A DNA stretch of 64,000 bases from positions 1 to 64,000 of the forward strand of contig JALGVJ010000011.1 of the NCBI GenBank assembly GCA_029838195.1, given 5' to 3'. The notes beneath the pieces are model-generated. The model was not told the DNA's origin and did no database searches. It was given only the letters and a program-made list of their open reading frames with translations. Position 1 is the first letter of the stretch; every line of letters begins with the position of its first letter. The position numbers were made by a program, and so were the translations under genes. This DNA is from Promethearchaeota archaeon. Lineage in GTDB: Archaea > Asgardarchaeota > Lokiarchaeia > Sigyniarchaeales > SOKP01. Positions 29,474 through 56,872 of the stretch are shown here, piece after piece.

Positions 29474-29902
29474 TTATGGAAATATTGATCCTAAATTTAA
29501 CTCATTTAATACATTAGTTAAAGCTATATCCAATTCTTCATATTTCTTTTCACATTCTTTTAGCAACCCTTCCAATTGAATAATGCGTTTCTTTAGAGCA
29601 GGCACGGATTCTGATTCAGAATTGGATTCTTTTATATACTCTTGTACTTCTCTCATGTTGCTTTCTTGCTGTATCATGATGGGAAGAAATTCCGTGAGTT
29701 CCTTTATCATTTCGGTTCGCTGACGGATGATTTCTTGTTTTAATTCTTTAGCAGAAAGCTCTTGTTTTTTTACTTTTTCAATCATCATTTTTAAGATGCT
29801 CAAGTTCTTCTTGTTAAAACAATATCGCTCCAGAAAATCCTTTAATTTGTTCTTTAAAAATTTGTTCTCTAAAAATAGATGCTCATTTTTATTTTCGGAC
29901 AT
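29474..29902 (-). CDS. Coiled-coil hypothetical protein
   Basis: Third gene of a tight operon (4-nt gap); heptad-rich. Confidence 0.65.
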   Translation of the reverse strand: MSENKNEHLFLENKFLKNKLKDFLERYCFNKKNLSILKMMIEKVKKQELSAKELKQEIIRQRTEMIKELTEFLPIMIQQESNMREVQEYIKESNSESESVPALKKRIIQLEGLLKECEKKYEELDIALTNVLNELNLGSIFP

Positions 29903-29906
29903 GTAA

Positions 29907-30815: not shown

Positions 30816-31462
30816 TTAAGTTTTTTTAATTTTTCTTTTTCCATTTCTATTAAAATATCTAAATCAATATCGTGCTCATTTACTAAGTCCTCCTCAACCT
30901 CCTTTTCATGATTCTTCAAAAATTCAAGAGAAGATTCAATATCATTATTTTCTGATTGAGGAAGGATTTCAAATGACGTGATAATTTTATAATACTGAAA
31001 AGCATGGGGAAATACTAAAAGAAAAGATATGCACATGAGGAAATAACCCATGCTAATGGTACTGAAATATTCTGAAGAATAATAAACGAAAGGGAAAACA
31101 TGTCCTTGAGGAATGAGACACACCAGCGGAAAGACGATGAGAAAACTCGCTTGAATGATGGGAACGGCAAGATTGATAATGGCATGGATTTCTAAGGATT
31201 TTAAATCGGAAGCATTTTCAGGATTTTTCATTAGCATGCTATAACCGCTTCCTGCTATAATCATTAAAAAAATAAACATAAAATAAAAGCTCCACGTATT
31301 CCATGAATAGCCTTCTTGAATGTCCCAAATATGTATTATCGTGAACATGCCATGTTCATTTTTTTCATACCACGGTAAGAATAACGAGAAAATACCTAAA
31401 ACAAATCCAAAAAGAGCTGAACCTTTCATCATGTTTTTTAAAATAAGATTCTTAATTGCCAT
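30812..31462 (-). CDS. 4-TM membrane protein
   Basis: Four hydrophobic helices, 'LFLPWY', acidic tail. Motif promoter at 31523-31537. Confidence 0.75.
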   Translation of the reverse strand: MAIKNLILKNMMKGSALFGFVLGIFSLFLPWYEKNEHGMFTIIHIWDIQEGYSWNTWSFYFMFIFLMIIAGSGYSMLMKNPENASDLKSLEIHAIINLAVPIIQASFLIVFPLVCLIPQGHVFPFVYYSSEYFSTISMGYFLMCISFLLVFPHAFQYYKIITSFEILPQSENNDIESSLEFLKNHEKEVEEDLVNEHDIDLDILIEMEKEKLKKLK

Positions 31463-31629
31463 GACACTGTTATTTCATTTCTAATTTTAATTTTATTCAT
31501 TATTTCACCCATATTTTCATGGTATTTAAAGAAAAAAAAAAGTAATTTTTTGAAGATAAAAATAAAGCAAGTAAAAACATGAATATTATTTTAGATTTCA
31601 TTAATTCTCTTAGTTTTCATTAATTCTCT

Positions 31630-32901
31630 TTAAAAGAGTTCAAGCACGTCATTCTTTCTATTTTTATTATCACCTTTTTTCTTATTTCTTTTTCTTTTTG
31701 TTTTTTCAAAATAAGAATTAAAATTGAGAGTATTTTCCCCACAAAACAAGGTCAATAGCACGTGAGGAGCAATTCGCTTTTCATCTACTGCCTCTAATAA
31801 AAATTGTGCAAGAAAAGAAGGATCTAAAGAATTTCTTAATTTAATGATATCTTCATGAGTAAATTCTCGAAATGAAGCATTCCAAGAAGATTTGCTTAAA
31901 ACACGCATGTATTTCCTCCTTTTTTTAAAAGGTTGGATACTGCTTACTTCCTCTTTATTCAAAAATGGTGATTTTAAACTTTCATGTAAAAAAATATGTT
32001 GTTTTATGTGGGTAAAAAATTCAGAGCACTGTGAAACAGAAAGCACGTGAAACGGCGGAGAAGGACAATATAAAAAAGGAGGTGAAATAGATTCCCAAGA
32101 AGAAAAACCGTTCTTAGAAAAAAATTTATTGAATTTTTTAAATTTAGCAAGAAAAAGATTGTTCGCTTGCACGCGAGAACTCAAGAGGAGCGGATGGTAA
32201 ATGAATTTTATTATTTTATCATTGAAAAAGAAAAATGGTTTATTTAAGAATTCTTTCTGAGAAATGGGAATTCGAAACTGCTCTTGAAGGAATTTAGAAA
32301 CATGAGCAGAATAACGCTTTAATTCCTTTTCTAATCGTGTTTTCGCAAAAATATCTGTAGAGAGGGGAATTTTTTTTGAATCTTTTTCCCGCAAGACAAG
32401 TAAAGAACCTTTTTCAATAGTAAGAGATAATTTAGATTCATTAATAATAATAGGAAAAAGAGATAAAACAGAAAACAAGGGAGAAATCGGGATGATAAGA
32501 ATAACTATTATATCAATTATACTTTCTTTTAGTTCCATGAAGTTCATGGTGGGTGTTATTTTTTGTTTCAACATCTCCTTGAGGGTATATATTAGGTGTT
32601 CTCGCTCTAATAATGTAAGTTTTTCTTCAGGGTTGAGTCCCATCTTCGAGAATAAGGAAATTTTTCTATCAAAACTTTTTTTTTTAGCCTTTACGTTTCG
32701 TTCTTGACATTTTACATATTCATTAAGTGTTTTTTGACGTGCCCTTATTTTAATGATAAGATTTCGTGAATTCAAGAAAGCATGGTTATTATCATGATGA
32801 GAATTATTATCATGATGAGAATTACTATGGGCATCTAAAATAACTTGTTTTTTGTATTCTTTATTATTATTTTCTTTTTTATTAGAAGATCGCATGTCCA
32901 T
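31630..32901 (-). CDS. Hypothetical protein with a PIP-box-like motif
   Basis: 423-aa ORF with 'QKTLNEYV'. Motif promoter at 32922-32936. Confidence 0.6.
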   Translation of the reverse strand: MDMRSSNKKENNNKEYKKQVILDAHSNSHHDNNSHHDNNHAFLNSRNLIIKIRARQKTLNEYVKCQERNVKAKKKSFDRKISLFSKMGLNPEEKLTLLEREHLIYTLKEMLKQKITPTMNFMELKESIIDIIVILIIPISPLFSVLSLFPIIINESKLSLTIEKGSLLVLREKDSKKIPLSTDIFAKTRLEKELKRYSAHVSKFLQEQFRIPISQKEFLNKPFFFFNDKIIKFIYHPLLLSSRVQANNLFLAKFKKFNKFFSKNGFSSWESISPPFLYCPSPPFHVLSVSQCSEFFTHIKQHIFLHESLKSPFLNKEEVSSIQPFKKRRKYMRVLSKSSWNASFREFTHEDIIKLRNSLDPSFLAQFLLEAVDEKRIAPHVLLTLFCGENTLNFNSYFEKTKRKRNKKKGDNKNRKNDVLELF

Positions 32902-33001
32902 TTCCTTATTTTCTTCCCTTCTATATAAAGAAAAAATTCAGTTGAATGAAATTCAAGAAAAAGCGCAATTTTACTATTTTTTATTTAAATAAAACGATTG
33001 G

Positions 33002-33405: not shown

Positions 33406-36015
33406 ATGACTTCCAAGCAAGATTCTTCGAAAAATTCTAAAAAACAATTAATAAAACAAGAAGCCGTTAAAAAGTATAACACAGAAACTCTTCCTTTTGA
33501 TGCAGTTTCCGATGAACCAAGGGAAACAAGAAAATCTACTTTAGAAATTGATAAATACATCTCGGATAAACGGATTTTACGTGTATTACTAGAAAACAAT
33601 ATTTTCGAATTAAGAGAAATCCAAAAAGTTGCCATCAAGCAAGGTTTATTTTTCCAAAAATCGTTTTTAATTTGTGCCCCATCCGGAAGTGGTAAAACTC
33701 TAATCGGAGAATTGTGCGCCATCCACAACATTCTCGAGGATTTCGGAAAATCCATCTATCTCGTGCCTTTCAAGGCCTTAGCAACGGAAAAATACATTCA
33801 TTTCAAAAAGAATTATTCCCGATTTAATATTAAGATAGGGCTCAGTATCGGAGACTTTGAACTAAATGAAGAAGAGCTGAAAAAATCGGACCTTATCGTT
33901 ACCACCTACGAGAAAATGGACTCCATTTTAAGAAATTTCAATGAAAAAGATTGGATTCACGAAATTTCCACCATAATAATTGATGAAATTCACATGATAG
34001 GCGAAGAGGTACGAGGGCCCCGACTTGAATCTCTCATCATCCGATTAAACGAATTTCTTTATCATCCTCAAATCATTGGCCTTTCGGCTACTATCGCAAA
34101 TCCCGAATTTTTTAATGCATGGCTAAGTTCTTTAGGAAATAAGACCACTTTAATCAAATCAGATGTTCGACCTGTACCCCTTCATTACCGCATTGAAATC
34201 TCGGGCAATAAAACGGCTACCATTCGCAAGTATATCAAGGCTATCTTGAGTCAAGAAGGGCAAGTATTAATATTCGTGAACACCCGAAAAGATTCGCAAG
34301 TGCTCGCTCAAGAATACATGAAACTAATTCCACACTTTTTAAAACCCGAAGAAAAAGAAATATGTAAAAGATTGAGCAAGAAACTCGAAAAAACGAATGG
34401 AAATAACAAGGAATTGGAACGCATGGTTTCTCACGGCATCGCCTTTCACCACGCGGGACTATTACCAAAAGAACGCAAGCTCGTAGAGGATAATTTTCGA
34501 AAACGCAATATAAAAGTCATTTGCTGCACGACCACGCTTTCTGCAGGTGTGAACACGCCGGCACGATTAGTCATCCTAAAAAAATTCAAGAAACACGTTA
34601 CTTCCGGGTATAATCTTACCAATTTTTCCGGCTATTTCGAAACGGGCGATGGCTTTTCTTTTTTCAAACCTTTTTCTGCTAATGAAGTATTCCAAATGCT
34701 CGGAAGGGCAGGACGACCAGGTTTAGATCCCCTTGGCTATGGTATTATTTTAGTTAAAAATTTAGATGAAAAGCTATGGGTGGAGGATAACTATTTTCAG
34801 CCTTTGGGTTCTGATTATATTCTTAAACCTAAATATAATGATTTAGTTTCCACGCTTAACGACGTGAGCGTGCTAACCGAACAAGTCTTACTACGGATAT
34901 ATGAAGAAAAGCGGATTTCCTTAGAAAAGCTCAAGCAATTTTTTGAACGCACCTATTTTTATCATGAATTCAAAAATAGGGCTTCACGTCAAAATATTTC
35001 CATTCCCATTGAACAGCTCCTCATGATTAAGGAAATCAAGCCTGTAAACATTTTAAAAATGTATTCCGCAAGCAAGAATTTAGTTAATATTAAAAAGAAA
35101 ATAAAAAAAATCCAATTAAATGGTGTAACCAGTAGCAAGATTAGCGGCTATCTTCAAACGCAGTACGGCGTGTTCGAATGCTCGTTTCACGTAAGCCGGG
35201 GAATCACCTGCTCGTGTGGGTTTAAAAATGGATTTTCCGATAATTTTGGAAATACAAAAAACTTATTCGAGTTTTGCGAACACGTGCTTGCATTTTTGAT
35301 ATATCTCATTGAATATCCAGATCCGAAGGTCCAAAAATATGTTGAAGACATCATTCCAAAATCACTTCGAAGGCAATACATTCTAAATTATCTTTTAGAA
35401 AAGGGATTACTCAAGAAAGACGAAAAAAACACGTTTTTTTGTACGGCCTTCGGAAAATTAGTAATTCAACTCTACATTGCTCCTTCCTCTGCAGTGTTGA
35501 TTCGGAAAAAATTGGAAAATAAAAGCATCAACACCTACATGGAACTACTAAAAGAAGCATTTAACATTTTAAAAGAAGAGGGTAAAGTGAGGAGAGATGA
35601 CTTTTTCGAACCCTTATTAGATTGGTGCGATGAAGTTCCTTTAGATGAAATTTTAGATCGATATAACATCATGGCGGGAGATTTGTTCACGCTCAGAGAA
35701 AACGTGGTTAGGAACATTATTTTCATTCAAAAAATTGCCGAATTTTTATCCCGGACTGGCACGGACTTGCGCGAATCTATGTTTAACGTGATGGAAATGG
35801 CAGAAACGCTCAGCATTCGAGTAGAACATGGCATAAAAGAAGAGCTATTCGATTTAGTACTACGCTTAAATCAAGTGGGGCGAGTTCGGGCAAGAATTTT
35901 ATTCAATGCAGGGTATAAAAATGCTTCTGAAGTAAGAAAAGAAACTCCCTACACGCTTCACATAAGAACGGGTCTGGGAATTAATCTATGTAAGGCTATA
36001 TTAAAAAGTAAATAA
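33406..36015 (+). CDS. hel308: Hel308/Hjm Ski2-like SF2 helicase with SWIM-type Zn finger insertion
   Basis: APSGSGKT, DEIH, GLSATI, FHHAGL, TTTLSAGVNTPA, QMLGRAGRPGLD, RVRARILF; insert CSC-x19-CEH. Confidence 0.9.
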   Translation: MTSKQDSSKNSKKQLIKQEAVKKYNTETLPFDAVSDEPRETRKSTLEIDKYISDKRILRVLLENNIFELREIQKVAIKQGLFFQKSFLICAPSGSGKTLIGELCAIHNILEDFGKSIYLVPFKALATEKYIHFKKNYSRFNIKIGLSIGDFELNEEELKKSDLIVTTYEKMDSILRNFNEKDWIHEISTIIIDEIHMIGEEVRGPRLESLIIRLNEFLYHPQIIGLSATIANPEFFNAWLSSLGNKTTLIKSDVRPVPLHYRIEISGNKTATIRKYIKAILSQEGQVLIFVNTRKDSQVLAQEYMKLIPHFLKPEEKEICKRLSKKLEKTNGNNKELERMVSHGIAFHHAGLLPKERKLVEDNFRKRNIKVICCTTTLSAGVNTPARLVILKKFKKHVTSGYNLTNFSGYFETGDGFSFFKPFSANEVFQMLGRAGRPGLDPLGYGIILVKNLDEKLWVEDNYFQPLGSDYILKPKYNDLVSTLNDVSVLTEQVLLRIYEEKRISLEKLKQFFERTYFYHEFKNRASRQNISIPIEQLLMIKEIKPVNILKMYSASKNLVNIKKKIKKIQLNGVTSSKISGYLQTQYGVFECSFHVSRGITCSCGFKNGFSDNFGNTKNLFEFCEHVLAFLIYLIEYPDPKVQKYVEDIIPKSLRRQYILNYLLEKGLLKKDEKNTFFCTAFGKLVIQLYIAPSSAVLIRKKLENKSINTYMELLKEAFNILKEEGKVRRDDFFEPLLDWCDEVPLDEILDRYNIMAGDLFTLRENVVRNIIFIQKIAEFLSRTGTDLRESMFNVMEMAETLSIRVEHGIKEELFDLVLRLNQVGRVRARILFNAGYKNASEVRKETPYTLHIRTGLGINLCKAILKSK

Positions 36016-36051
36016 CAAATCTAATATTATAAATCTATTAATATGATTTAA

Positions 36052-38271
36052 TTAAATCTTCTCCTTTTTCTTTTTCTTTTTATTATATTCATAAAGGTTA
36101 TGAATCATGAACAATAACTCTTGAGAATCATCAAATATGAGATAATGAATCCCATGACTCTTGCAAAAGTGTTTTATTTTTTCTTTTACGACGATTTTTT
36201 CTCCTGATACGTGTTCTGAATAATTAGTGAAATCCATCGCCCAAAAGACTAACACGTACTTTTCTTGTAAGGTTTTATTCTGGAGTAGAAGCTCATGAAA
36301 ATTCATAGTAGATGGTTTCATGATTCGAATCAAAATACGGTCAAGTAAAATGATATCTGAGCTGGAAATAGTATCATTCAATCCATATTGTATTTTTTTT
36401 CGTTGTAAATATTTGCGGAGGCCATATTGAACGGTAAATCGAGAAGAAATCAAAATTCTGGAAAATTCTTTAGAAAAACTTAAAGAAGAATTTTTTATCA
36501 CGTATCTTTCTTGATCTTTTATCTCTTGACAAGAAGAGTTCATGAAAGAAGTTAATCGTGTTTGCGTCTTTTGGATTTTATATTTTTTTTTAGAATTTAA
36601 AACGGAAGTAGTAAAAGAAATATCTTTAGAAGTCGTATCTAAAAGAAAAAGGTGCCCCGAAGGGGAGGTTTTAGGCGCATTTGATTTTAATGTTCCTTCC
36701 ATGTGTTTTAGTTTTTTTAGTGCCACCATTAAATATACCTCATCATTAGTATCTTTCGTATAGAGCATGATAACTTTCCCTTCCCTATGACGAGCAGTGC
36801 GTCCTTTTCTCTGAATTAACCGAATTTCCGATGCCACGATATCATAAAAAATAACTATATCGCATTCGGCAATGTCCAAACCCTCCTCTCCTACGTTCGT
36901 GCTTACCAATACATTATACTTTCCATCCTTGAAATCTTGAAGTATTTTAATCTGTTCTTTTTGGCTCAAACCCTTATCGGCCTTTTTAGACGCTTGCCCC
37001 ACGAACCGCTTGGGCTGAATGCTCGGAAGCGATTTCAATTTTTCCACGATATTTTTCACGGAATCTCTTAACTTCACGAATACGATCACGCGAGATTCTG
37101 GATTAATAGTGAATTGTTTGGCTAATATTTTTTTTAAAAGGATGAGCTTGGGATGTAATAACATCTCTGATTTAAATACTTGATATTTTTTTAATTCCAA
37201 GAGTAAAGCAGTAAGCTTGGGATTGCTCGCAAGATATCTTTGAGCTTTGGAACTATTACTTTTCTTGGCTTCTGATTTTAATTTTTCCAAATAGACCAAG
37301 AGAATGTCTAATCCTTGTTGTTCGACAAGGGATTCCATGTGATACAAAATTAACGCTTGAGCTATGATGGATAAGGCTACATACACGTTCTTGCTGGGAA
37401 TACCTTGCTGGGTCATGGCAACGAGTTCAGAGCGTAATTCCACGAGTTTCTTTCTATATATTTTATCCTCAATATTTTGACTGTTTTTATCACTTTTAGA
37501 GGGAGGAATTACTCCCAAGCGATCCAAATAATATAATCGCTCTTTTATTAATTCGTGTATCACGTCCAGAGCTTTTTTCATGAGATCCGTGAGAGATACT
37601 CCCATCTTAATGACATCCATGGGCTTGATATACGATTTCACGTCAGCATCCGCACGTGAGCGGTAATGGATGTTCTCTAAAGGCACGTGCAAGATTTCGC
37701 ATAAATTTTCCACACTCTCGCGGGTGGCACCAGGGGATGCCGTAAGTGCAAGAATGTTTCCCTCTGGGTTTTGGATCATGTACTCGCTTGCCAAATACAC
37801 GTACGCATAATCTCCCGTGGCGTGATGAGCTTCATCAAAAATCATCAAGCACACCTGAAATAAGCTGTATTTTTGTTTCACAATGTCGTTTCGCAAGGTC
37901 TGTGGCGTGTAAAATAATATTTGATTTTCCGAAAAAAGCAAAGGACGTTCCTTAGGAGATGTCCTTCCCGTCAATATCACGAACTTCTCGGGAGGAATGT
38001 TTAAAAATCGTAAGAAAAATTCGTGGTGTTGGTCTATTAAGGGACGAGTTGGTGCCATTAAAATGATTTTACTGTCGGGAGGATAATATTCTAAAGTTTT
38101 TGCTGCGACCAATAAAGCAATGATGGTTTTTCCCAAGCCCGTGGGAATGATCACCAATGAATTCTTGTTCACGCATTGTTCCGCAATAGAAAGCTGATAT
38201 TCTCGCTTTTCAAGAAGCTCTTCCCTTAAATATTTGAATTCCTTTAACCGCAAATCTTCACTCGTTACCAT
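36052..38271 (-). CDS. hef: Hef/FANCM-like SF2 helicase with degenerate C-terminal ERCC4-like domain
   Basis: PTGLGKT, FDEAHH, LTASPG, HPKL, EEGLDI, IQRKGRTAR; PIP-like QTRLTSFM; C-terminal 'SDIILLDRILIRIMK' lacks ERK. Confidence 0.88.
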   Translation of the reverse strand: MVTSEDLRLKEFKYLREELLEKREYQLSIAEQCVNKNSLVIIPTGLGKTIIALLVAAKTLEYYPPDSKIILMAPTRPLIDQHHEFFLRFLNIPPEKFVILTGRTSPKERPLLFSENQILFYTPQTLRNDIVKQKYSLFQVCLMIFDEAHHATGDYAYVYLASEYMIQNPEGNILALTASPGATRESVENLCEILHVPLENIHYRSRADADVKSYIKPMDVIKMGVSLTDLMKKALDVIHELIKERLYYLDRLGVIPPSKSDKNSQNIEDKIYRKKLVELRSELVAMTQQGIPSKNVYVALSIIAQALILYHMESLVEQQGLDILLVYLEKLKSEAKKSNSSKAQRYLASNPKLTALLLELKKYQVFKSEMLLHPKLILLKKILAKQFTINPESRVIVFVKLRDSVKNIVEKLKSLPSIQPKRFVGQASKKADKGLSQKEQIKILQDFKDGKYNVLVSTNVGEEGLDIAECDIVIFYDIVASEIRLIQRKGRTARHREGKVIMLYTKDTNDEVYLMVALKKLKHMEGTLKSNAPKTSPSGHLFLLDTTSKDISFTTSVLNSKKKYKIQKTQTRLTSFMNSSCQEIKDQERYVIKNSSLSFSKEFSRILISSRFTVQYGLRKYLQRKKIQYGLNDTISSSDIILLDRILIRIMKPSTMNFHELLLQNKTLQEKYVLVFWAMDFTNYSEHVSGEKIVVKEKIKHFCKSHGIHYLIFDDSQELLFMIHNLYEYNKKKKKKEKI

Positions 38272-43587: not shown

Positions 43588-43602
43588 TTTTTTCTTTAAA
43601 TA
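43588..43602 (+). promoter_or_regulatory. T-tract/TATA promoter of the radA paralog
   Basis: TTTTTTCTTTAAATA; identical 15-mer at 6267(-), 22619(-), 31523(-), 47572(+) and 52918(-). Confidence 0.75.
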
Positions 43603-43657
43603 AACATGTCATAAATTTTAGATCAAAAAATAAATATACAAAGGTGATGGAAAAAAT

Positions 43658-44914
43658 TTGACAGATCTCAGCCAGGTAAAAGGAATCAATGCCAGACAAA
43701 TCAAGCTACTTCAGGAAAACGGAATTGGAAGTGCCGAAGCTTTGGCCATGTCTCCTTTTAGCGTGGTGGCAGAAATAAAAGGCTTAGGAGAAGCCACTGC
43801 CAAGAAGCTCATTTGGAACGCTCGCAACGGCTTGGGCATGACGGAATTTTCTCCAGCTTCTGAAATCAATGAAAATGTGGAATACATCACCACGGGCTCG
43901 GCAGCATTAGACGGAATTTTTCAAGGAGGAATTCACACGGGAAAGCTCACGGAAGTGTTTGGACCTTTTAAATCGGGAAAAACGAATCTTTCACATACGC
44001 TTTCCGTGACAACTCAGCTTCCAAAAGAAAAAGGAGGAGTGGAAGGTGCGGTCATCTACATTGATACGGAAAATACTTTTTCAAAAAACAAGATTACCCG
44101 CATTGCTAAGCGATTTGAATTAAATCCTAATGAAGTACTTTCACACATTTTTCAAGCACGTATATATAGCTCTGACCATCAATCGCAAATGATAACGAAA
44201 GCGGAAGCATTTTGTAAGAATCGAAACGTGCGTTTGATTGTAGTTGACAGCCTGATGGCCCTCTTGCGAGCGGAATACATGGGGATTGGCATGTTAGCAA
44301 AACGGCAAGGTGTTTTAAACGGCATGATACACGCACTTTCTCGGATTGCCGAAACCTATAACGTTGCGGTCCTTTTGACAAATCAAGTGGCAACGAAAAT
44401 GATGGGCATGTTTGCGGCGGATGATGCCATCGGAGGAAATATCGTGGCGCACGGCTGCCATTTCCGTATCATGTTCAAGACTAAAGGATTCTCTTCCAAC
44501 TCTTCTTTAAAGAGAAAAGCCATTATCGTGGATGCTCCTGACCTTCCGCCAAATGAATGCGAGTTCTATATTACCGGTGCGGGTATTGCAGATACTGAAG
44601 AAATATCAATTCCCAAAAGCTCTTCAGATGTATTTGATGTGACAGAATTTTATGAACAAGGCGATGATGCTTTAGAAGTAGAGGAAAATAAAGAGGTAGA
44701 AGGAAGTGATGGAAATGGTGGCAAAAGCATGAACATTAACTTAACGGATGTAAAAGGAATTGGAAAAGGAACGGCAAAGCAGTTGAATGATCAAGGTATT
44801 CTTACAATCCAAGATTTATTGGTTCAATCGCCTGAAGATTTGGCTGAAAAAATTTCGGGCATCTCTTCAAAGAAGGTAAGAGAATGGCAAAGAAATGCTA
44901 AAATCCTTATCTAA
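43658..44914 (+). CDS. radA: RadA/Rad51 recombinase paralog with an extra C-terminal HhH domain
   Basis: N-terminal HhH, TEVFGPFKSGKT, YIDTENTF, LIVVDSL, LTNQV, GGNIVAH. TTG start with GGTGA SD. Confidence 0.9.
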   Translation: MTDLSQVKGINARQIKLLQENGIGSAEALAMSPFSVVAEIKGLGEATAKKLIWNARNGLGMTEFSPASEINENVEYITTGSAALDGIFQGGIHTGKLTEVFGPFKSGKTNLSHTLSVTTQLPKEKGGVEGAVIYIDTENTFSKNKITRIAKRFELNPNEVLSHIFQARIYSSDHQSQMITKAEAFCKNRNVRLIVVDSLMALLRAEYMGIGMLAKRQGVLNGMIHALSRIAETYNVAVLLTNQVATKMMGMFAADDAIGGNIVAHGCHFRIMFKTKGFSSNSSLKRKAIIVDAPDLPPNECEFYITGAGIADTEEISIPKSSSDVFDVTEFYEQGDDALEVEENKEVEGSDGNGGKSMNINLTDVKGIGKGTAKQLNDQGILTIQDLLVQSPEDLAEKISGISSKKVREWQRNAKILI

Positions 44915-45078
44915 TAAAACTTATTACCATTTTTTTAAAGTCAAATTAATTTTATTTTTTCTTATTTTTTTAAAGAATGTTTTTTTATGATTTTACTTTT
45001 TAATCGTGATAATTTTTCTTTTAAATAGAATGACTGATCTTTAAGTAATAAACATGTAATTAATTAAGAGATTTTAAA

Positions 45079-45396
45079 ATGAAAAAAATCGAAGAGATTG
45101 GAACATGTCCCATTTGTGAGAGTATTTTATTTCTCTATAAAACAAGTAATTACAAGCGATTTGTAAAGTGCGAGGCATGTGGAATCTCTTATCCAGTACC
45201 GAAACGGGGGAAGATCGAGATTTCGGGTTTGAATTGTCCAAAATCGAACATGCCCCTCCTCATCATAGAGAAAAAAGAAGGAAAATCGTACTTTTGGGCA
45301 GCTGAACCGTGTTTCAATTGCCTCACTAGAAGTTCTTGCGAATCTGTTCAACTTCTTATTAAAGAATTTGAAGAATTAAACATTCACGGGTATTAA
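45079..45396 (+). CDS. Topoisomerase-IA C4-type Zn-ribbon protein
   Basis: CPIC..KRFVKCEAC..YPVPKRGKI..CPKS..PCFNC. Motif promoter at 45013-45027. Confidence 0.75.
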   Translation: MKKIEEIGTCPICESILFLYKTSNYKRFVKCEACGISYPVPKRGKIEISGLNCPKSNMPLLIIEKKEGKSYFWAAEPCFNCLTRSSCESVQLLIKEFEELNIHGY

Positions 45397-45430
45397 AAAA
45401 GAAAATACAGGAAAAAAGGAAGGATAAAAA

Positions 45431-45643
45431 ATGGACCTGGAATTATGGATGGAAGTATTTGAGTTTTTACTTGCTGTAGGTTCGATTTTAGGATTAATTG
45501 GATTTATTGTAGGTCTCCTCATCTTGTTTTTCTCAGGCCCCCGTAGCAAAGAAAAATTTATTCCCTTCCTCTTGATTTGCTTGCTTTTATTAATTATTTG
45601 CGGATGGAATGCGGGCTTGCGATATTTTAGAATTAATTTTTAA
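45431..45643 (+). CDS. 2-TM hairpin protein (pilin-like), paralog of 61565-61786
   Basis: EFLLAVGSILGLIG..CGWNAGLRYF. Confidence 0.75.
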   Translation: MDLELWMEVFEFLLAVGSILGLIGFIVGLLILFFSGPRSKEKFIPFLLICLLLLIICGWNAGLRYFRINF

Positions 45644-45797
45644 TTATTTCACTTGTATTTTTTCTTTTTTTAATTATTAGTACTCTTTTCATAGCTCATT
45701 GATATAATTTTTTGTTTAAAAGGATTGAAAGAATAAGAATAACTTGAACATAATTGTAAAAAAAATATAAAAATTAAATTTAAAGCGGTGAAAGAGA

Positions 45798-46745
45798 ATG
45801 GAAAACAATTGCGAAATCCATTCCAATGGTTCCATTGAGATGATCAAGGCTTCTTTGCTTCAAGCGGGTTTTAGTGAGGAGGAGCTCGAAAAAGAGGTGG
45901 AGCGCAAGCGAGAGGAATTTGGCGGGTTCATTTCCGAAAAGGGTATCTTATTTTTGATTGCGAAAGACCACGACCTCCCTATCCGCTCTCCCGATATTGA
46001 TAGATCTTTATATGACTTGGTTGAACAAGAAGAAATCGATTATGACGAATTTAGGATTGATATTGCTCAGCTTGAGGAAGGGTTATCTAACGTGGTGATC
46101 ATCGGTAGAATTGTTAAAACTTATCCCATTCATTATTTTGCCCGTAAGGATGGCACCACGGGAAAAATAAGCTCATTCTTGCTTCAAGATAACTCTGCCA
46201 TGATTAAGGTGGTCATGTGGGACGACCTTGCGGATATTGTCAATGAAGAGGCATTTGAAGTGAATCAAGGGATTCGAGTTATTGGAGGTTATACCAAGAT
46301 GAATAAGGACCGCTTGGAAGTCCATTTAGGGAAAAAAAGCAGGCTGATGTTCCTCTCAAAAGAAGAAGCACGGGAGAAACAGCTCAGAGAAGCATCCGAA
46401 ATGCTTCCTTATGTTTCTCACACGAAAAACAATAAGGTCAGTGAGAAAAAACTATCTAAAAATGCCTATCTACCTTATCTTTCAGGCAAAGTACTGAATT
46501 TTACTTTTAAGGAATTTGATAGAAAGAAAATGGAAAAATCGTTTCTCTTAAAAATTACGATATTAGCGGAGGAAAACAAGGAATACATCGTGAATTTTTG
46601 GAAATTTGATGCTATAGAAGTCTTGAAGCTCATCGAAAAAGGCAATCTTATTTATTTAACCAATTTAAAAAGTAAAGAAAATCCCTATACTAAGGAAAAA
46701 GAATTTCATTATACGGATCGTTCTACTCTGAATATTTTAAATTAA
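45798..46745 (+). CDS. RPA/SSB-like OB-fold protein
   Basis: N-terminal helical domain 'GGFISEKGILFLIAK'; OB fold 'FARKDGTTGKISSFLLQDNSAMIKVVMWDD'; a second OB fold. Confidence 0.85.
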   Translation: MENNCEIHSNGSIEMIKASLLQAGFSEEELEKEVERKREEFGGFISEKGILFLIAKDHDLPIRSPDIDRSLYDLVEQEEIDYDEFRIDIAQLEEGLSNVVIIGRIVKTYPIHYFARKDGTTGKISSFLLQDNSAMIKVVMWDDLADIVNEEAFEVNQGIRVIGGYTKMNKDRLEVHLGKKSRLMFLSKEEAREKQLREASEMLPYVSHTKNNKVSEKKLSKNAYLPYLSGKVLNFTFKEFDRKKMEKSFLLKITILAEENKEYIVNFWKFDAIEVLKLIEKGNLIYLTNLKSKENPYTKEKEFHYTDRSTLNILN

Positions 46746-47472: not shown

Positions 47473-47637
47473 GATAAAATTATTTTATTGTTATATATAA
47501 AAGAAAAAAATTAAGATCCTCGATAATGATCTCATTACTTTTTTTAATGCAATAATGGAATATTCCGTCATTTTTTTCTTTAAATAAAAAGGCCCCAAGA
47601 AAAAATAATAATATTAAAAAAAAAGAAAAGTGAGGAT

Positions 47638-48183
47638 GTGAAAAACATGCAAAAAACTCAATTGTGGAATAATGAAATCACTAAGATTTTAGATGCCATG
47701 AGATATGAATACAGCAAGCTGATTCGAAAAGGATATATTCACGGCTTAATCGTGGTTGACCAAGACGCTAAATTAATCGCCATGGATTCGCATTTCGACA
47801 AGTCTTTAAATTATTGGGACTTGAGTGCCATTGGGGCCGCTTTTTACGGTGTTGCCCGACAAGGCCAAGATTTTTTTGAAGCGTCCGAATTAGAACGAGC
47901 CAGCATCATTTATAATGACCTGCAGTTATTCGTGAAATCAATTGGAAAAGTTCAAATCGTTCCTAACAAAAAACGTGAAATTTTAATCGTAATTCTTTCC
48001 GATCGGGCTGTAAATTTAGGGCTTCTCATTCTCCAGATGAATCGATTTGCTCCCGAAATCAAAGAAGGCATTGAGAAAAATGCCTCCATTAAAAAAACTT
48101 TATCCATGAATGAAACAGAACTAAAAGAATATATCAAACAACTGAAGAACGGTTTATTTAATAATGCAGAAACTATACTATAA
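47638..48183 (+). CDS. Roadblock/LAMTOR (MglB-like) protein
   Basis: 'GLIVVDQDAKLIA..LSAIGAAFYGVA..VNLGLLILQM'. Directly upstream of the GTPase. Confidence 0.8.
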   Translation: MKNMQKTQLWNNEITKILDAMRYEYSKLIRKGYIHGLIVVDQDAKLIAMDSHFDKSLNYWDLSAIGAAFYGVARQGQDFFEASELERASIIYNDLQLFVKSIGKVQIVPNKKREILIVILSDRAVNLGLLILQMNRFAPEIKEGIEKNASIKKTLSMNETELKEYIKQLKNGLFNNAETIL

Positions 48184-48202
48184 GGGGTGAGCTAAAAAAA
48201 AA

Positions 48203-48823
48203 ATGAATTCTTCCTTGACATCTAAAGATGTATTTGACTTTGGCTCAAGCCTTCTTCAGTTAAAAGTGGTATATTGGGGTCCCGGCGAATCGGGAAAAAC
48301 CACGAGTTATAACGTGCTCAAAGAAGAGCTTCGTTCTAAGAAGATTTCTCGAAGTATATCCGTGGAAACCACCGATGGCAGAACGCTCTGGAAGGATTGC
48401 ATGTATTTATCCTTTTCATTAAAGCTAAATAAGTTCACGTTTGATGTCGTCGTCCAGGTGGTCACGTGTACGGGTCAAGAACGGTTTCTCTCCACCCGGG
48501 AATACGTGTTAGATGGAGCTGATGGGATCGTTTTCGTGGCAGACTCCTCACCTTTAAAGCGAGAAGAAAACAAGCGGAGTTTTCGGGAACTCATGAGCTT
48601 CACGGCTTCGAATAACGTTCCTTACGTGGTTCAATTGAACAAGCGGGATTTATCTGATGCGATTTCTGAAGAAGAGTTTAAAAAAGATCTGGAATTACCG
48701 GAGGAAAAAGCGTATCCGGACGGCACGTTGGTGGTATATCCTACCATTGCCACGGAAAAAGTCAATGTTTTATATTGTTTTAAAGACTTATTGGGGCTTA
48801 TTTTATTTAAAAACTTCTTATGA
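48203..48823 (+). CDS. MglA-like small GTPase
   Basis: KVVYWGPGESGKTT, GRTLWKD, TGQERF, GADGIVFVADS, QLNKRDL. Confidence 0.88.
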   Translation: MNSSLTSKDVFDFGSSLLQLKVVYWGPGESGKTTSYNVLKEELRSKKISRSISVETTDGRTLWKDCMYLSFSLKLNKFTFDVVVQVVTCTGQERFLSTREYVLDGADGIVFVADSSPLKREENKRSFRELMSFTASNNVPYVVQLNKRDLSDAISEEEFKKDLELPEEKAYPDGTLVVYPTIATEKVNVLYCFKDLLGLILFKNFL

Positions 48824-48981
48824 ATAAATACATGATTTTATAAAGTTTTTTTATAATCTTTTTTCTATTTCATGATACCTATAATTCAGTAACTTAGAAT
48901 TTTTTTTATTTATATAGTTTGACTAAAAACTTCAGATTAAATAATAATATTCAATTAATCATTTACCACCTCGAAAGAAAA

Positions 48982-49572
48982 ATGCCTTCTCTCATAGAAT
49001 ATCCTTCATTAAGTTATAAGGCAAAAAAAAAGCTGAAAATTGAAATTCTTGACCATTCGTTCAGGAAATATAATTTTCTAATGGAATCCTTGAGCATCTC
49101 CCGATTTGCCAAAATTCTACACCATTCTTTTTCTGAACATGATATTTCTGAAATACAAGAAGTTTTAAATAATTTTTCCGATGATTGGAAACGATACAAG
49201 ATTCGTTTTCAACTCACTACTAAATTATTACCCTTCCACGGAGAACCCCATTCAGTGCACGATTTGATGGAATATCGGTTCAATGTGTTACAGCAGCATT
49301 TAAAAGAACTATATCATATCGCTCCCATTTTCAATTTACAGCGGGCCACTCATAATGCAAAAGTATTATTAACAATGTTGGATCAAAAAAATTATTGTCC
49401 TGTCCTTAGCACGCAGTTGGCATTAATTTTATTTGTCACAGACACTCGAGACTCGTTGGTCAAGGAGGGTAAAAAGAAACCGATTTTACAAGTTAATATT
49501 CGGAATTTATGTAAAACTTCTGCTTACGCCTTTCATAGAGCACGAAACAAGTTAGGAATAAGTCGATTTTAA
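48982..49572 (+). CDS. Protein with a C-terminal TFB/cyclin-repeat-like HTH
   Basis: 'LALILFVTD..ILQVNIRNLCKTSAYAFHRARNKL'. ATG 48982 preferred because TTG 48919 abuts the TATA box at 48902-48916. Confidence 0.6.
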   Translation: MPSLIEYPSLSYKAKKKLKIEILDHSFRKYNFLMESLSISRFAKILHHSFSEHDISEIQEVLNNFSDDWKRYKIRFQLTTKLLPFHGEPHSVHDLMEYRFNVLQQHLKELYHIAPIFNLQRATHNAKVLLTMLDQKNYCPVLSTQLALILFVTDTRDSLVKEGKKKPILQVNIRNLCKTSAYAFHRARNKLGISRF

Positions 49573-51795: not shown

Positions 51796-52896
51796 TTATA
51801 TTGATTTATTCGAGAAAATCTCATCTAATGTAAGCTGAACATGCTTGGATTTTTTTCTGAATGTTTCAAACGCAGAAATACAAGAATGATATTTATTAAT
51901 TAACTTATTTAAATTGTTTTCTACTCGAGCTTGATTGAGATGATGGTCTTTACAAAGAAAGGCACGCACTTTTTCTCTTATGGGAGCCGTCCAAGTGAAC
52001 GGTTCTTTTGGCGTGATTACTTCAGGAAAGAGAAAAATGTTCCGAACCTTAAAAATTATTTCAGGCGTGAGAGAGGAGAAATAATAATTTTTATTTCTTT
52101 CACGGTCAATGATATTTTCAAGTGTTTCATGAGCTTTTATTAATTTCAAGGCGGTTTTTGATCCAACATGTTTGATGCCCGGAAAATAATCCGTTTTTAA
52201 TAATAAGACTAAATCAATGAGTTGAAAGTAATTAATTCCCATTAATTTAAGGCTTTTCTTGAGGTCATATAACTTAGGCTCAATTTTTTGATAAACCCAT
52301 TTATTTTTGATCTTTCTTCTCATGGACTTTGTTAAATTCTGAATGACGTGAGGACTTCCGAACAAGAGCGAATCAAAATCTTGAGAGTTCATGTAATCCA
52401 CGAGATGACTTTTTACTAAATGAGCACATTGAGCTTCAGCGGAAGAAGGAGATTCAATATAAGGTACACCCAATAAACTTAATAAAATTTTAGATTCTTC
52501 TACAACGGAAGGCCATAAAAATTCCTTGCTCAATCCGATTTGACGAGCTGTTTTCCAATCCTTGTTTTTTAAGGCTTTTTCGTGCATGCGTTTCGCATAT
52601 CGGAAGTCATTGAGTTGATCTTTAGTAATGATGCGTTTTAACTCCGAGACTTTGCCATCAAAACAAAACACAGGAAGAATCCGCTTTGAATACAAGAATA
52701 AAATCTTGTATAAAATTCCATAAAGGTGATTGATGACTCGCTGCGTTCTGTCAATGAATAAGGAATCGGTATTCTTAGCAGTGAAATTTAACGTGCTAAA
52801 TAAAAAATTAGGAGTATCAATTGCAATGACTGTTCCTTCCAAGGAGGTGAGAGAAATAGGTTCAGCATGGAGTAGGTCAGCAATTTTCACTCCCAT
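51796..52896 (-). CDS. fen: Divergent FEN1/XPG-family flap nuclease with PIP box
   Basis: MGVKI, AIDTPN, FDGK, AEAQ, SQDFDSLLFG, TDYFPGI, QLTLDEIF. Confidence 0.88.
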   Translation of the reverse strand: MGVKIADLLHAEPISLTSLEGTVIAIDTPNFLFSTLNFTAKNTDSLFIDRTQRVINHLYGILYKILFLYSKRILPVFCFDGKVSELKRIITKDQLNDFRYAKRMHEKALKNKDWKTARQIGLSKEFLWPSVVEESKILLSLLGVPYIESPSSAEAQCAHLVKSHLVDYMNSQDFDSLLFGSPHVIQNLTKSMRRKIKNKWVYQKIEPKLYDLKKSLKLMGINYFQLIDLVLLLKTDYFPGIKHVGSKTALKLIKAHETLENIIDRERNKNYYFSSLTPEIIFKVRNIFLFPEVITPKEPFTWTAPIREKVRAFLCKDHHLNQARVENNLNKLINKYHSCISAFETFRKKSKHVQLTLDEIFSNKSI

Positions 52897-52988
52897 GACC
52901 TATCTGTTTTATCCTCATATTTAAAGAAAAAATCAGTATTAGGGAAAAATCATTTTTATTTAAATAAATTTAATGAGTAGTTAAGAGG

Positions 52989-53624
52989 ATGATGGAAAAT
53001 GTAAATTATATTGAAAAAAAATTTCATGAAAACAATGTTAATGGAAATTTTATAAACCTTGGTGCGACTGATTTCAACCAAGAAATAGATAAACATGATG
53101 TAATAAATGTTCTATTACGTTATTTCTCTATTCCTGTCCTTAGAGCTTCTTCTAACCGCATGAAAACAGCAATGGTATCATTTTTAGCTCGAATTCTTAA
53201 TAAAAATAAATCATGGATTCGTGATTCTATAAACGAATTTTTAGAAAACTGCCAATCGTTTAAAGAGATTCTAAAACAAGAATTAAAAAAGTTGAAATTG
53301 GACGGATGCTTCGACCCCATCGAAACGCACATTAACCTCTTGAATCGCTTTCTCGAACAACTTCATTCCTTTACAAATGCGTTCGATATGGAACGTGCCA
53401 AGATAAACATGTTAATCCTCATTGATAAATTAGACGCTAAATCTAAGTTCATGCCTCTTTTTAACCTAAACATTCATCTTGCTTTTTTGATATATATTAC
53501 CGATGTTAAGGATTACGAGGTTTTGAGAGCTAATATTTCTCCTCTTAAGTTAGAAAATATTTGCTACATGACAAATTGTAAAGAAAAACAATTGTTTCAA
53601 TTAAAGGCGATCCTTTCTCCTTAA
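52989..53624 (+). CDS. Paralog of 48982-49572 (cyclin/TFB-repeat-like C-terminus)
   Basis: 'LDAKSKFMP..HLAFLIYITD..LKLENICYMTNC' aligns with 'LDQKNYCP..QLALILFVTD..ILQVNIRNLCKT'. Confidence 0.6.
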   Translation: MMENVNYIEKKFHENNVNGNFINLGATDFNQEIDKHDVINVLLRYFSIPVLRASSNRMKTAMVSFLARILNKNKSWIRDSINEFLENCQSFKEILKQELKKLKLDGCFDPIETHINLLNRFLEQLHSFTNAFDMERAKINMLILIDKLDAKSKFMPLFNLNIHLAFLIYITDVKDYEVLRANISPLKLENICYMTNCKEKQLFQLKAILSP

Positions 53625-53691: not shown

Positions 53692-54447
53692 CTATGGCAA
53701 ATAAAAGGTAATGCCTTGATCAGTAATTTCAAATTTTAACGAAATCTTTTTCTCATTATAATGGATGATTAACCTTCTAAGCCTACCATGTGAATGAGCT
53801 TCCATGAGATGAGGTGGAAAAAGCTCAAGAGTCACTCCCTTTATCCTCTCAAATAAAGAGGAATAAAAAACATTATCCTGAGAAGTAGTCGGATTCGTAG
53901 AAAACTCATGAATGAGAAATACAAGAATATTTTTAAATGAACAATAAAATAAGAGAGGCACCAATTGCTTTTCAAAAAAATCATTAATAATAACTTCTCT
54001 TATATTCATGTCCTCTTCCATGGATAAACGCAATCGCAAGTGATGAGAGATGTTATCCACGACCATACATTTGAGATAAGGAATATTAGGCAAGTATTTT
54101 TCAAGAAGTCCTTGAAAAAGTAATTCTTGTTTTTCATATGAAAGGAGGACAGAACGAGCCGGAAAAATGAAAAAGCGCTCATGAAGGGATGAAGATTTAT
54201 TATTATAAAATATTTCTAATTGTTTGAGTCGCTTAACGGGAAAATGTTCGGAAGCTTGAATCCACGCGCACGCATGACGTGATCCGAGTAAATGATAGAC
54301 TAAATAGAGAACAAGATTAGTTTTTCCGCTTCCTGCTTTCCCCTTTACATGAATGACATTTTCTCTTTTTAAAATAAGAGAAATAATTTCCAAGAGGTCT
54401 TTTTCATTCAAAATCTTTAAACTTCTTTTTTCTTTTTTTCGAGCCAT
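53692..54447 (-). CDS. RadB/Rad51-paralog-like RecA-fold ATPase
   Basis: GKAGSGKT, WIQASEHFPVKRL, VVDNISHHLR, FEITDQGI; no N-terminal HhH. Confidence 0.8.
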   Translation of the reverse strand: MARKKEKRSLKILNEKDLLEIISLILKRENVIHVKGKAGSGKTNLVLYLVYHLLGSRHACAWIQASEHFPVKRLKQLEIFYNNKSSSLHERFFIFPARSVLLSYEKQELLFQGLLEKYLPNIPYLKCMVVDNISHHLRLRLSMEEDMNIREVIINDFFEKQLVPLLFYCSFKNILVFLIHEFSTNPTTSQDNVFYSSLFERIKGVTLELFPPHLMEAHSHGRLRRLIIHYNEKKISLKFEITDQGITFYLP

Positions 54448-54763
54448 TATTATTTTCTCTTAAAGCTTGTAAAACCCTTTTCTCAAGATTATCATGAGAT
54501 CTGTTAGGCAAGATAATAGTATTATCACGCTTGGAAGAATTGTTTTCCGCATTTTTAAGGTTCATGGCTAATAACATTAAGGGTAACCATTTATCCGTTC
54601 CATCAGAAGAATTTCCTTTTATTTTCAAGTGTTTTTTGTATTTCACGAACAGGAAATAGACGATAATGACGCACGTGATATAAATGACATATTGGGGATT
54701 GGTTTGAATGAACACGATTAAGAACATTATCAAGATTAGATAGAATAAACATTTAAATGTCAT
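54404..54763 (-). CDS. Small 2-TM membrane protein overlapping the RadB-like gene
   Basis: ATG 54763 has an AGGAGG SD; ATG 54805 abuts the promoter motif (54808-54822). Confidence 0.65.
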   Translation of the reverse strand: MTFKCLFYLILIMFLIVFIQTNPQYVIYITCVIIVYFLFVKYKKHLKIKGNSSDGTDKWLPLMLLAMNLKNAENNSSKRDNTIILPNRSHDNLEKRVLQALRENNNGSKKRKKKFKDFE

Positions 54764-55384
54764 TTTTTTGATACTACCTCCTGTATAGTATTTAAATACA
54801 TTCATTCTATATAAAGAAAAAAAGTTCTATCACGCAAATAGAAGAAAAAATACCCAATTGAACAATGTTTATTTTCTTATGAGAAATTGTATTAAAGAAA
54901 AGATTTTATAGAATTGGTTTAATTTAATATAGATCAATCAGTTTTTGGAAATATTTTTTATTCAATATGCCAAAAAAATGGAAAAAATAAAAGAAAATTA
55001 TTATTAAACCGTTTTCCTTAAGGATTCAAAAAAGCTCATATTATTAAAATTCTAATATTTCACGATGTCTTTCTACACCTAATATTTTGAGAGAAGAACC
55101 CAAATTCTCACCAAGATCATCAAATCAAGAAGAGAAGAATTACATTAAGAAGCCTAATTAATTCTGGATTTTGGAAGAGTGTATATTTATATTTAAGAAA
55201 TGAATTAATGATTAACACATTTAAAAGAATAGCTTTAATTTAAAAAATTTTGATCTCAAAACAAGCCCAAAAGTGATCAACACTTTTTGTGAGATTGATT
55301 TTTTGCTAAATATTGTTCATTTATTAGGACATTAAATGAAATAATTCCATCATAAATATAAAGGATATTAAAAATGAGGTCAAA

Positions 55385-55401
55385 ACCGTAAAGTTTAAAA
55401 G
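55385..55401 (+). promoter_or_regulatory. Canonical BRE-TATA promoter of the tfb paralog
   Basis: ACCGTAAAG-TTTAAAAG, i.e. a purine-rich BRE with no T-tract. Confidence 0.6.
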
Positions 55402-55459
55402 GCACACTCCCCCCAGTATATTTCCTTAAGAAAAAATGTAAAATGAGTTGTAATAAAAA

Positions 55460-56851
55460 ATGGCATCTAAAACTAATAAAAATTTGGTTTTTACGGAATT
55501 CTTAACTTGTGATATTTGTGGCTCGACTGATATTGTCGAAACAATGGAAGGTTATACCTGTAGAAATTGCGGTATTGTACTCAACATGCAACGTTTAGAA
55601 TATCACAGGCCATATAACGAAGCTTGTTTACAGCACGCACCTCTTAATTCAACCCAAATTGGAACTAAACAAGAACGCTTGAATCATACAAGATCTCCCC
55701 ATTTACAGAGATTAAATAAACTTCATTCTATTTCCTCGATATCAAATGAAAAATTTATAATTGAAACCGCCAGAAAAGAAATCTCTCGTCTTTTAGAGAT
55801 TCTTGGTTATTCTACTTCGGAGATGAATCAAGATATCTTGAAAAATGTTAAAACTATTTGGCAAAAAATAGAAAAAGGAACAAAATTTAGAAATGTTGAG
55901 AAATTAATCCCTGCCGTGATCTACGTTTATTTTAAGATTAAATGCCTCTTCATTAATTGGTCCAAACTTTTAGAGAATTCTAAACTCTCGAAAGAAGAAT
56001 TTCGCGCTGCTTTAATGACCGTCATTCGATTTCTAGACCATGAGGTGAGAATTGCTTATCTCAAGGGAACGAGAAAACGATATTGCGAGCGAAAAATTTT
56101 ACGAATAGCAGAAGAATTTGGTTTGGGAATGGACTTTTATCATCAAGCCGTGGCGCTCATGTATAAATTATGGAACATTATTCAAAATACGAAAGAAGAT
56201 GTCATCGTGGGAGTAACATGCAGTCTCATTGCTCTCACATCCGCTTATCGAGAGAAAATTTCTGTTTCTAAAATATGCTCTTATGTAGGCATTCAGATGT
56301 CCACTGTTCAAAGTCAGGTAAAAAAACGCATCATTGAGAGGTTCAAGATTCCCGGATTTATAAGTCTTGTTAAATCTGCAAACCTCATTGAAAAAATCTT
56401 AAAAAAATTGGGCATTTTAAAAGAAAAACTCACTCATCGGAGACAGAAAAAAATTCATGATGATGAGAAACAAGCTGAAGAGAAACAAGATATCAAAAGA
56501 AATTCGGAGATTAGTTTAGAAGAAGAGGAGAAGGATGCCATTAGAATAATTAAATCATTTGAATTAGAATTCATGGTTTCAAAAAATAATAACGCCAAAA
56601 AGGCATGTTATATTTTAAAGAGCAGTAATGGAAAACACGGATATTTATTGTTACTTGATGAAAACGATAAAAAACAAGGTCATTTTCAAGGCTTTAAAAA
56701 ACGATTTCAGAAAAAATCAATTAGATTAGTAAATCATCAAACAAAATTTTTTAATAATCCCTTGATACAAGTTAATGCGATTTTAAAATTTAAAACGGGT
56801 AAAGGACCTCCTGAAAAAGAACATATAATTTCATTTCACTTCATCAGATAA
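55460..56851 (+). CDS. tfb: Divergent transcription factor B (TFB/TFIIB) paralog with C-terminal extension
   Basis: CDICGS..YTCRNCG Zn ribbon; two cyclin repeats ('LIPAVIYVYFK', 'ISVSKICSYVGIQMSTVQSQVK'). Confidence 0.85.
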   Translation: MASKTNKNLVFTEFLTCDICGSTDIVETMEGYTCRNCGIVLNMQRLEYHRPYNEACLQHAPLNSTQIGTKQERLNHTRSPHLQRLNKLHSISSISNEKFIIETARKEISRLLEILGYSTSEMNQDILKNVKTIWQKIEKGTKFRNVEKLIPAVIYVYFKIKCLFINWSKLLENSKLSKEEFRAALMTVIRFLDHEVRIAYLKGTRKRYCERKILRIAEEFGLGMDFYHQAVALMYKLWNIIQNTKEDVIVGVTCSLIALTSAYREKISVSKICSYVGIQMSTVQSQVKKRIIERFKIPGFISLVKSANLIEKILKKLGILKEKLTHRRQKKIHDDEKQAEEKQDIKRNSEISLEEEEKDAIRIIKSFELEFMVSKNNNAKKACYILKSSNGKHGYLLLLDENDKKQGHFQGFKKRFQKKSIRLVNHQTKFFNNPLIQVNAILKFKTGKGPPEKEHIISFHFIR

Positions 56852-56872
56852 TAAATGAAGTGAACTTTTATT
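56835..56872 (+). terminator. Hairpin plus T-rich tail at the tfb 3' end
   Basis: TTCACTTCAT (56835-56844) / ATGAAGTGAA (56855-56864). Confidence 0.5.

Follow-up and report, generated by a model that had tools for sequence, protein, structure and literature searches.

It is a long-standing question whether the TFB paralogs of archaea behave as sigma factors do, each with promoter sequences of its own. Of the best-studied paralogs, TFB3 does not bind DNA and TFB2 uses a near-identical BRE. The stretch of Lokiarchaeial DNA analysed here (64,000 nucleotides, called the window below) raises the question again, since a gene for a strongly divergent TFB lies in it among genes that share an uncommon promoter element, a T-tract immediately in front of the TATA box. 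Does this TFB read that element? Judging from sequence comparison and structure prediction, we put a probability of about 70% on the reading that it is a dedicated alternative TFB, functioning like an alternative sigma factor through direct read-out of the T-tract.

A divergent TFB of complete architecture

The gene was called as an open reading frame at 55460-56851 on the plus strand and encodes 463 aa. A Pfam/NCBIfam search of the protein gave no TFIIB match and returned the Zn ribbon alone (PF08271, E 1e-3, below the cut-off). A profile built from the 71-sequence family matches TFIIB structures at E 1e-5, and the AlphaFold model, with a pLDDT of ~90 across aa 100-320, has TFIIB/TFB structures as its top Foldseek matches (e.g., 1d3u_B, E 3.6e-5, target TM 0.75). 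By these models, the product is a real TFB of full architecture. All its parts lie on the plus strand. A C4 zinc ribbon with nearly invariant cysteines, the RNAP-recruiting domain (aa 17-37, 55508-55570), is followed by a shortened B-reader with a retained B-linker helix (aa 46-92, 55595-55735), as seen in the alignment. Cyclin repeat 1 (55757-56029) keeps R144, the Arg of the canonical GRS motif, and carries a conserved K178. Cyclin repeat 2 (56072-56335) is seen in the AlphaFold model and by Foldseek, the altered BRE-recognition HTH (aa 268-288, 56261-56323) was delimited by alignment to the host TFBs, and a poorly conserved C-terminal tail (56420-56848) is evident in both the family alignment and the AlphaFold model. 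The preliminary description of this DNA had recognized the Zn ribbon and the two cyclin repeats, which the cysteines, the model, Foldseek and the profile all confirm. It had also made much of a B-reader lacking EWRAF. The motif is indeed absent, but this is unremarkable because it is present in only 2 of the 8 ordinary TFBs of the host and the other 6 also do without it; the true change is a reader about 20 aa shorter with conserved YxRPY and TQIG..ER.

The C-terminal extension, correctly described as longer than 100 aa, spans about aa 321-463 (143 aa; the family median is ~100). Its conservation score within the family is 0.25, compared with 0.73 for the HTH and 0.74 for the Zn ribbon, and the paralog on contig 50 has no tail. 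Near the tail end stands KGPP (56801-56812). The pattern [KR]GPP, which resembles the bacterial RAPP/RGPP arrest motifs, follows a non-conserved spacer in 46 of the 71 homologs and is rare at the C-termini of the other proteins of this genome.

The genome contains one TBP (on contig 53), eight ordinary TFBs and three copies of the divergent clade, the other two being on contig 49 (79%) and contig 50 (45%). Since assembly contamination is 7.9%, the contig 49 copy could derive from another strain. Next to each of the three copies lies a divergently oriented gene for a small membrane protein. Named homologs are nearly all from Promethearchaeota/Lokiarchaeia, and support for the split between the clade and canonical TFBs is 100/100 in a tree with flagged long branches. 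The gene after the divergent TFB encodes a large surface protein in many relatives. A 232-aa copy without the Zn ribbon, preceded by a T-tract promoter, occurs at G147:C35:110253-110951 and L069:5136-5834, and is a candidate feedback inhibitor.

A model of TBP with the core of the divergent TFB, made without DNA, scored 0.34 against 0.01 for the best control. Its runs agreed in at least 53% of contacts with a partner pLDDT of at least 86. The mark set for this score is reached by 58 of 80 solved pairs and by 2 of 110 mismatched pairs; at 0.60 or under, it is reached by 7 of the 80 solved pairs and by both mismatches. Because TBP-TFB complexes have already been solved, the score may reflect memory, and the model weakly supports the view that the divergent TFB binds TBP.

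A conserved change in the DNA-reading helix

The last HTH had been singled out as altered, and it does differ from that of all eight host TFBs, in a manner conserved across the family. The residues V269, C273, M280, S281, Q284 and Q286 replace the Q, S/A, E, V, R and R of the host TFBs. M280, S281, Q286 and C273 are invariant in the 71 homologs, and position 284 is Q or H. The canonical Q...EVTxRxR helix is found in all eight host TFBs (with Ala for Val in one) and in none of the 71 sequences of the divergent clade. The host TFBs share the recognition helix of the Pyrococcus woesei chain in 1D3U, where we take the BRE-contacting residues to be Q268, V280 and R283, mapped to the divergent TFB by alignment. 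From the general chemistry of protein-DNA contacts, the exchange of Arg for Gln fits a change from guanine to adenine read-out. Since the key residues are invariant and the HTH is conserved like the Zn ribbon and unlike the tail, the helix is under selection for something new. To judge from the alignments, the BRE-reading helix has been rewritten and has not decayed.

A private promoter class at the position of the BRE

The promoter motif consists of a T run, one base, and TTTA(A/T)ATA. It precedes 30 of the ~3700 called genes, and 23 of these are located on the three contigs that carry a divergent TFB. On contig 89, all 19 motif sites start in the first 64 kb, with none in the remaining 48 kb. 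Overall, a T-tract stands before 26 of the 37 TATA boxes of the cluster (the islands) and before 23 of 505 in the rest of the genome (p 2e-22), and it occupies -2 to -7 before the TATA box, which is the BRE position. In relatives, T-tracts were found at 54 of 98 module promoters compared with 13 of 147 neighbouring promoters (p 3e-15). In G188, whose genome is a single contig, module pieces at 0.21, 0.49 and 0.96 Mb retain the motif. It is kept at distances of 0.3-0.75 Mb from the TFB, so the T-tract is not a local sequence bias. Upstream terminators and base bias were ruled out as explanations, as the T-tracts are found in divergent spacers, their spacing to the TATA box is fixed, and T content is near equal (0.38 vs 0.36) with no matching base bias. 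A mirror image of a canonical promoter on the opposite strand was rejected too, because the A-tract would then fall downstream of that TATA box.

Host promoters have no strong BRE consensus and ordinary TFBs may therefore tolerate T-tracts, which counts against a dedicated reader; tRNA promoters, tried as a host BRE reference, were too few and unclear. Whole-genome motif counts in 135 genomes were so noisy relative to background that they did not separate genomes with the TFB from those without it. At 57283, 63180 and 19306 (+), T-tract promoters are followed by no clear ORF; the one at 57283 precedes a hairpin containing GGAGGTGAT, possibly a small RNA.

The genes of the cluster form a module that is conserved across genera at ~30-60% identity. 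Closest to the TFB, a T-tract+TATA promoter on the minus strand (54808-54821) leads an operon of the divergent small membrane protein found beside all three TFB copies (54404-54805, -) and a RadB-like RecA-fold ATPase (53692-54447, -). Back-to-back T-tract promoters (52918-52966) serve a FEN1 paralog (51796-52896) and the ORF 52989-53624. On the plus strand, one T-tract promoter leads a roadblock-like gene and an MglA-like GTPase (47573-48823, +), and another leads a RadA paralog, a Zn-ribbon protein, a 69-aa two-helix membrane protein (at 45431) and an RPA-like OB protein (43589-46745, +). Further along lie Hel308-like and Hef-like helicase paralogs (33406-38271), a T-tract-led membrane operon (29474-32935, -) that in relatives extends into the pseudo-ATPase gene, an XPF/ERCC4 nuclease paralog (27125-27874, -), an M50-like HExxH membrane protease (9641-10327, -), and a 1303-aa membrane protein having a HerA/TrwB-fold domain with degenerate Walker motifs, the pseudo-ATPase (1706-5617, -). 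Across genera the module accordingly comprises the extra RadA, RPA-like, Hef, Hel308-like, FEN1, XPF and RadB-like genes as well as the roadblock/MglA pair, the M50-like protease, the large surface protein, two-helix membrane proteins and the operon of the ~1300-aa protein. For most of its repair genes, the host has separate housekeeping copies.

Several other genes in this region deserve mention. The ORFs 48919-49572 and 52989-53624 are transcribed from T-tract promoters and encode paralogous proteins of ~210 aa that end in an HTH-like part and are conserved in relatives; they matched neither the TFB clade profile (probability 0.7%) nor PDB cyclins when examined as possible TFB derivatives. 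Among the genes at 14156-18703, at 20301-22529 and from 64130 onward, a DUF4011 helicase-nuclease lies within the island without the motif, and ThiF and GNAT-like genes carry it here and in relatives.

What is the module for? The C-terminal domain of the pseudo-ATPase has a HerA/TrwB fold by structure prediction, which alone reveals it, as sequence profiles gave no match against the PDB; its language-model neighbours include CedB. Given this fold and the extra set of repair genes, DNA transport with recombination is the likeliest purpose, and from folds and neighbours the cluster seems, on balance, to be a competence or DNA-exchange programme. The Walker motifs are degenerate throughout and the absent Walker A lysine counts against a role as a DNA-transport motor. 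The small membrane proteins of the module gave no match to the Ced families (CedA/CedA1). In most relatives the M50-like protease gene lies next to the TFB in divergent orientation, as it does in 17 of 30 short loci. By analogy, such a protease and a small membrane protein beside the TFB could recall site-2 protease/anti-sigma control, or equally pilin processing.

Helix and element in a sister family

A sister family holds the same module. In the single-contig genome G143 it covers ~45 kb and includes a 411-aa TFB, and in G138 the main cluster lies at 5.615-5.640 Mb with the TFB and FEN1 near 4.425 Mb. In the tree, whose long branches were flagged, these TFBs join the divergent clade and are separated from canonical TFBs at 100/100, and their recognition helix reads ASTVY in G143, G140, G142 and G138. 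The T-tract pattern is absent from the module promoters of the sister-family clusters. Their element is instead TTYGAT-like, with G at -3 in 63% compared with 5% in the T-tract family. It was counted at 11 of 47 against 3 of 53 promoters (p 0.02), and 7 of 31 genome-wide sites fall inside the 24-kb G138 cluster; these counts are partly circular because the pattern was derived from the same promoters. Beyond the canonical state there are thus two independent helix/element states, which represent two lineages and no statistical series. As far as the sequences of these two lineages go, and with one exception (G238, below), helix and element co-vary. Direct read-out predicts that the two change together; recruitment of an ordinary TFB by a separate activator does not.

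Outside the two families, the more distant Lokiarchaeial locus L177 (G128:C11:597449-605309) holds FEN1, a split pseudo-ATPase (535+325 aa) and a helicase together, with no TFB of the divergent clade in the 20 kb examined. Further divergent TFB clades with other helices occur at L169, L175, L158 and L159 (G144, G133), including ASAISAR-type helices and long KGPP-tailed forms. The 4.4-Mb single contig of G135 has no match for the pseudo-ATPase or the G143-type TFB and is a possible negative control.

Genomes with and without the factor

Across 134 genomes of the family, the TFB and the pseudo-ATPase occur together in 86, the TFB alone in 11, the pseudo-ATPase alone in 16 and neither in 21, an odds ratio of 10 among kin that are not independent. 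The association of TFB clade, motif and gene set that the preliminary description proposed to look for is therefore present family-wide, with G238 as the exception. That description had named persistence of the motif in genomes lacking the TFB as refuting its idea, and the motif is in fact kept at 19 of 31 promoters of genomes without a TFB match. Eight TFB-less genomes, however, retain M50, the usual neighbour of the TFB, and in six of them the contig stops just upstream of M50, at the TFB start; the final bases of the G192 contig are the TFB promoter and ribosome site. Because of these breaks, the apparent refutation by TFB-less genomes is mostly an assembly artefact. G158 has a lone M50 gene and no pseudo-ATPase. 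In G238 (99% complete), the motif is kept and the M50 and surface-protein genes have an empty site between them where the TFB would be, with no TFB copy elsewhere in the assembly, so that this genome is a real exception and counts against dependence on the TFB. Five further genomes (including G211) keep the motif and have neither TFB nor M50; since M50 is absent too, the whole TFB-M50 block has been lost or was not assembled.

Transcription of the TFB gene itself

The TFB gene has been said to possess a canonical promoter, and this holds. On the plus strand at 55386-55410 lie a purine-rich BRE, a TATA box and a conserved downstream block, the canonical-like core being CCGTAAAG then TTTAAAAG (55386-55401). 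The purine-rich element with the same downstream block recurs in at least 16 of 37 TFB promoters of relatives, and a T-tract TATA box in 1 of 37. This purine-rich promoter is conserved in the family, and not clearly so in the sister family.

The 7-bp dyad reported upstream of it does exist, at 55269-55287. As a regulator site it was ruled out: the 654-nt upstream spacer contains 2 such dyads where 2.7 are expected by chance, and the upstream regions of the TFB in relatives do not share it, having other sequences at that place. In genus g11 (L021-L050), a conserved TGACA-N4-TGTCA palindrome precedes the TATA box of the TFB by ~110-150 nt; after the palindrome comes GTGATC, often with an ORF of 4-8 codons. 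This palindrome is a likelier candidate for a regulator site than the dyad at 55269-55287.

Proposed mechanism and alternative explanations

The mark of a sigma-like factor is a promoter class of its own, shared by a coherent set of genes, and such a class and gene set were found here. In the mechanism that we propose, an ordinary host TFB would transcribe the divergent TFB gene from its purine-rich promoter. The product, whose TFB fold is seen in the model, would join the single TBP of the cell on the TATA box, its intact Zn ribbon and B-linker would recruit RNA polymerase, and the rewritten helix would read the A:T tract at -2 to -7, where host TFBs expect purines. About 20 transcription units, which are co-located, would be switched on at once, and these may furnish an apparatus in the membrane that resembles DNA transporters, together with recombination enzymes that make up a second set. 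The cascade from housekeeping TFB to divergent TFB to T-tract promoters had been suggested before, and it fits all the computational tests, although the arguments from the dyad and from EWRAF fall. A bolder version, which we offer tentatively, is that Lokiarchaeia possess a true archaeal alternative-sigma system, in which a BRE code reprogrammed per family alone licenses competence-like uptake and recombination, maybe under the control of the M50 and small membrane proteins.

The purpose of the system might be different. It is conceivable, though unlikely, that the cluster represents a mobile element, either integrated or domesticated, whose TFB is a private initiation factor for genes of transfer and recombination, as in viruses that carry TFIIB. 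Its patchy presence, with 2-4 copies per genome, the TrwB-like fold, the extra copies of host repair genes and language-model neighbours that include viral TFIIB clusters all speak for such an origin. Against it, gene order is kept across genera at ~30% identity and in the sister family, the module is scattered over the chromosome in single-contig genomes, and the genes tested included no integrase, relaxase, capsid or tRNA site. This account can stand together with the promoter mechanism; the difference is one of purpose only.

A more direct challenge, to which we give a somewhat smaller chance, is that the T-tract is an activator site or a weak BRE where a separate factor, either an Orc1/Cdc6 paralog or the protein encoded at 10461-11072, recruits ordinary TFB, leaving the divergent TFB as a co-activator or just one more module gene. 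There is a precedent in Orc1-2, which binds ANTTTC and activates ups/ced/tfb3 (PMC6061795), and some sister-family (G138-type) sites contain ANTTTC. Those sites work at variable distances, however, whereas the T-tract has a fixed spacing in the BRE position, where a bound activator would be expected to clash with TFB. The three islands showed no Orc1-like P-loop protein, and the protein of ORF 10461, though conserved in both families, matched no solved structure. G238, which keeps the motif without the TFB, favours recruitment by another factor; the invariant new helix and its co-variation with the element would be left unexplained by it.

Could the divergent TFB instead be a repressor, competing on TBP at T-tract promoters and keeping the module off? 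We regard this as very improbable. The shortened B-reader and the truncated Zn-less copies in G147 and G149 would suit such a role, yet conservation of the Zn ribbon matches that of the HTH and the protein keeps its B-linker helix, so recruitment of RNAP appears to be selected. That the protein is neutral cargo, a drifting paralog beside AT-rich promoters, draws on the lack of a TFIIB Pfam/NCBIfam match and on the AT-rich genome, and it is already largely refuted by the invariant helix residues, the fixed-spacing motif without base bias and the linkage in two families.

Discussion

The divergent clade offers a clean test of the sigma-like behaviour of TFB paralogs, because three helix types and three elements could be reconstituted in vitro with one TBP. 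The clade likewise points to DNA exchange as a regulated programme of Asgard archaea. Our literature search found no description of this TFB clade or of such an Asgard programme. If the bolder version above is true, Asgard archaea would have a route for exchanging genes, and promoter-class-specific TFIIB paralogs such as Brf1/Brf2 would have a prokaryotic precedent.

Compared with the archaeal TFB/TFIIB of the Pyrococcus woesei TBP-TFB-BRE complex (PDB 1D3U), the divergent TFB shares the Zn ribbon, the B-linker, the two cyclin repeats and the C-terminal HTH. It differs in having ~15% identity, the rewritten helix, the shorter reader and a tail of 100-150 aa, and PF00382 misses the protein. Among TFB paralogs, Sulfolobales TFB3 has neither B-finger nor HTH and needs TFB1, and in that system Orc1-2 reads ANTTTC at variable distance (PMC6101591, PMC6061795). 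The likeness is that a TFB paralog is tied to DNA-exchange-type genes and a T-rich promoter element; unlike TFB3, the divergent TFB has all its domains, and the element lies in the BRE position. The analogy with TFB3 drawn in the preliminary description is therefore wrong in mechanism, because TFB3 lacks the HTH. The BREs of Sulfolobus TFB2 resemble those of TFB1 but are spaced differently, and the TFB2 gene is itself a target of TFB2 (bioRxiv 10.64898/2026.09.06.749720). Like the TFB2 division regulon, the present system uses a full-length paralog for a dedicated gene programme, but here it is the sequence of the element that differs, and the divergent TFB gene does not carry that element.

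On the side of DNA transfer, the Ced/Ted import systems (CedB, CedA, CedA1; PMC9905601) likewise combine a membrane-anchored HerA/TrwB-fold protein with two-helix proteins and a linkage to recombination, whereas in the pseudo-ATPase the Walker motifs are degenerate and the N-terminal membrane part is much larger. Paralog-specific regulation is also a feature shared with the haloarchaeal TFBs. The Halobacterium proteins TfbA-G have canonical-type helices and overlapping BREs and are not known to be clustered with a private regulon. A comparison in logic comes from bacteria: in streptococci, ComX/SigX, a basal factor with changed promoter specificity, turns on genes for DNA uptake and recombination. 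The protein family is unrelated and the likeness is one of working only, but the logic is the same as that proposed for the divergent TFB.
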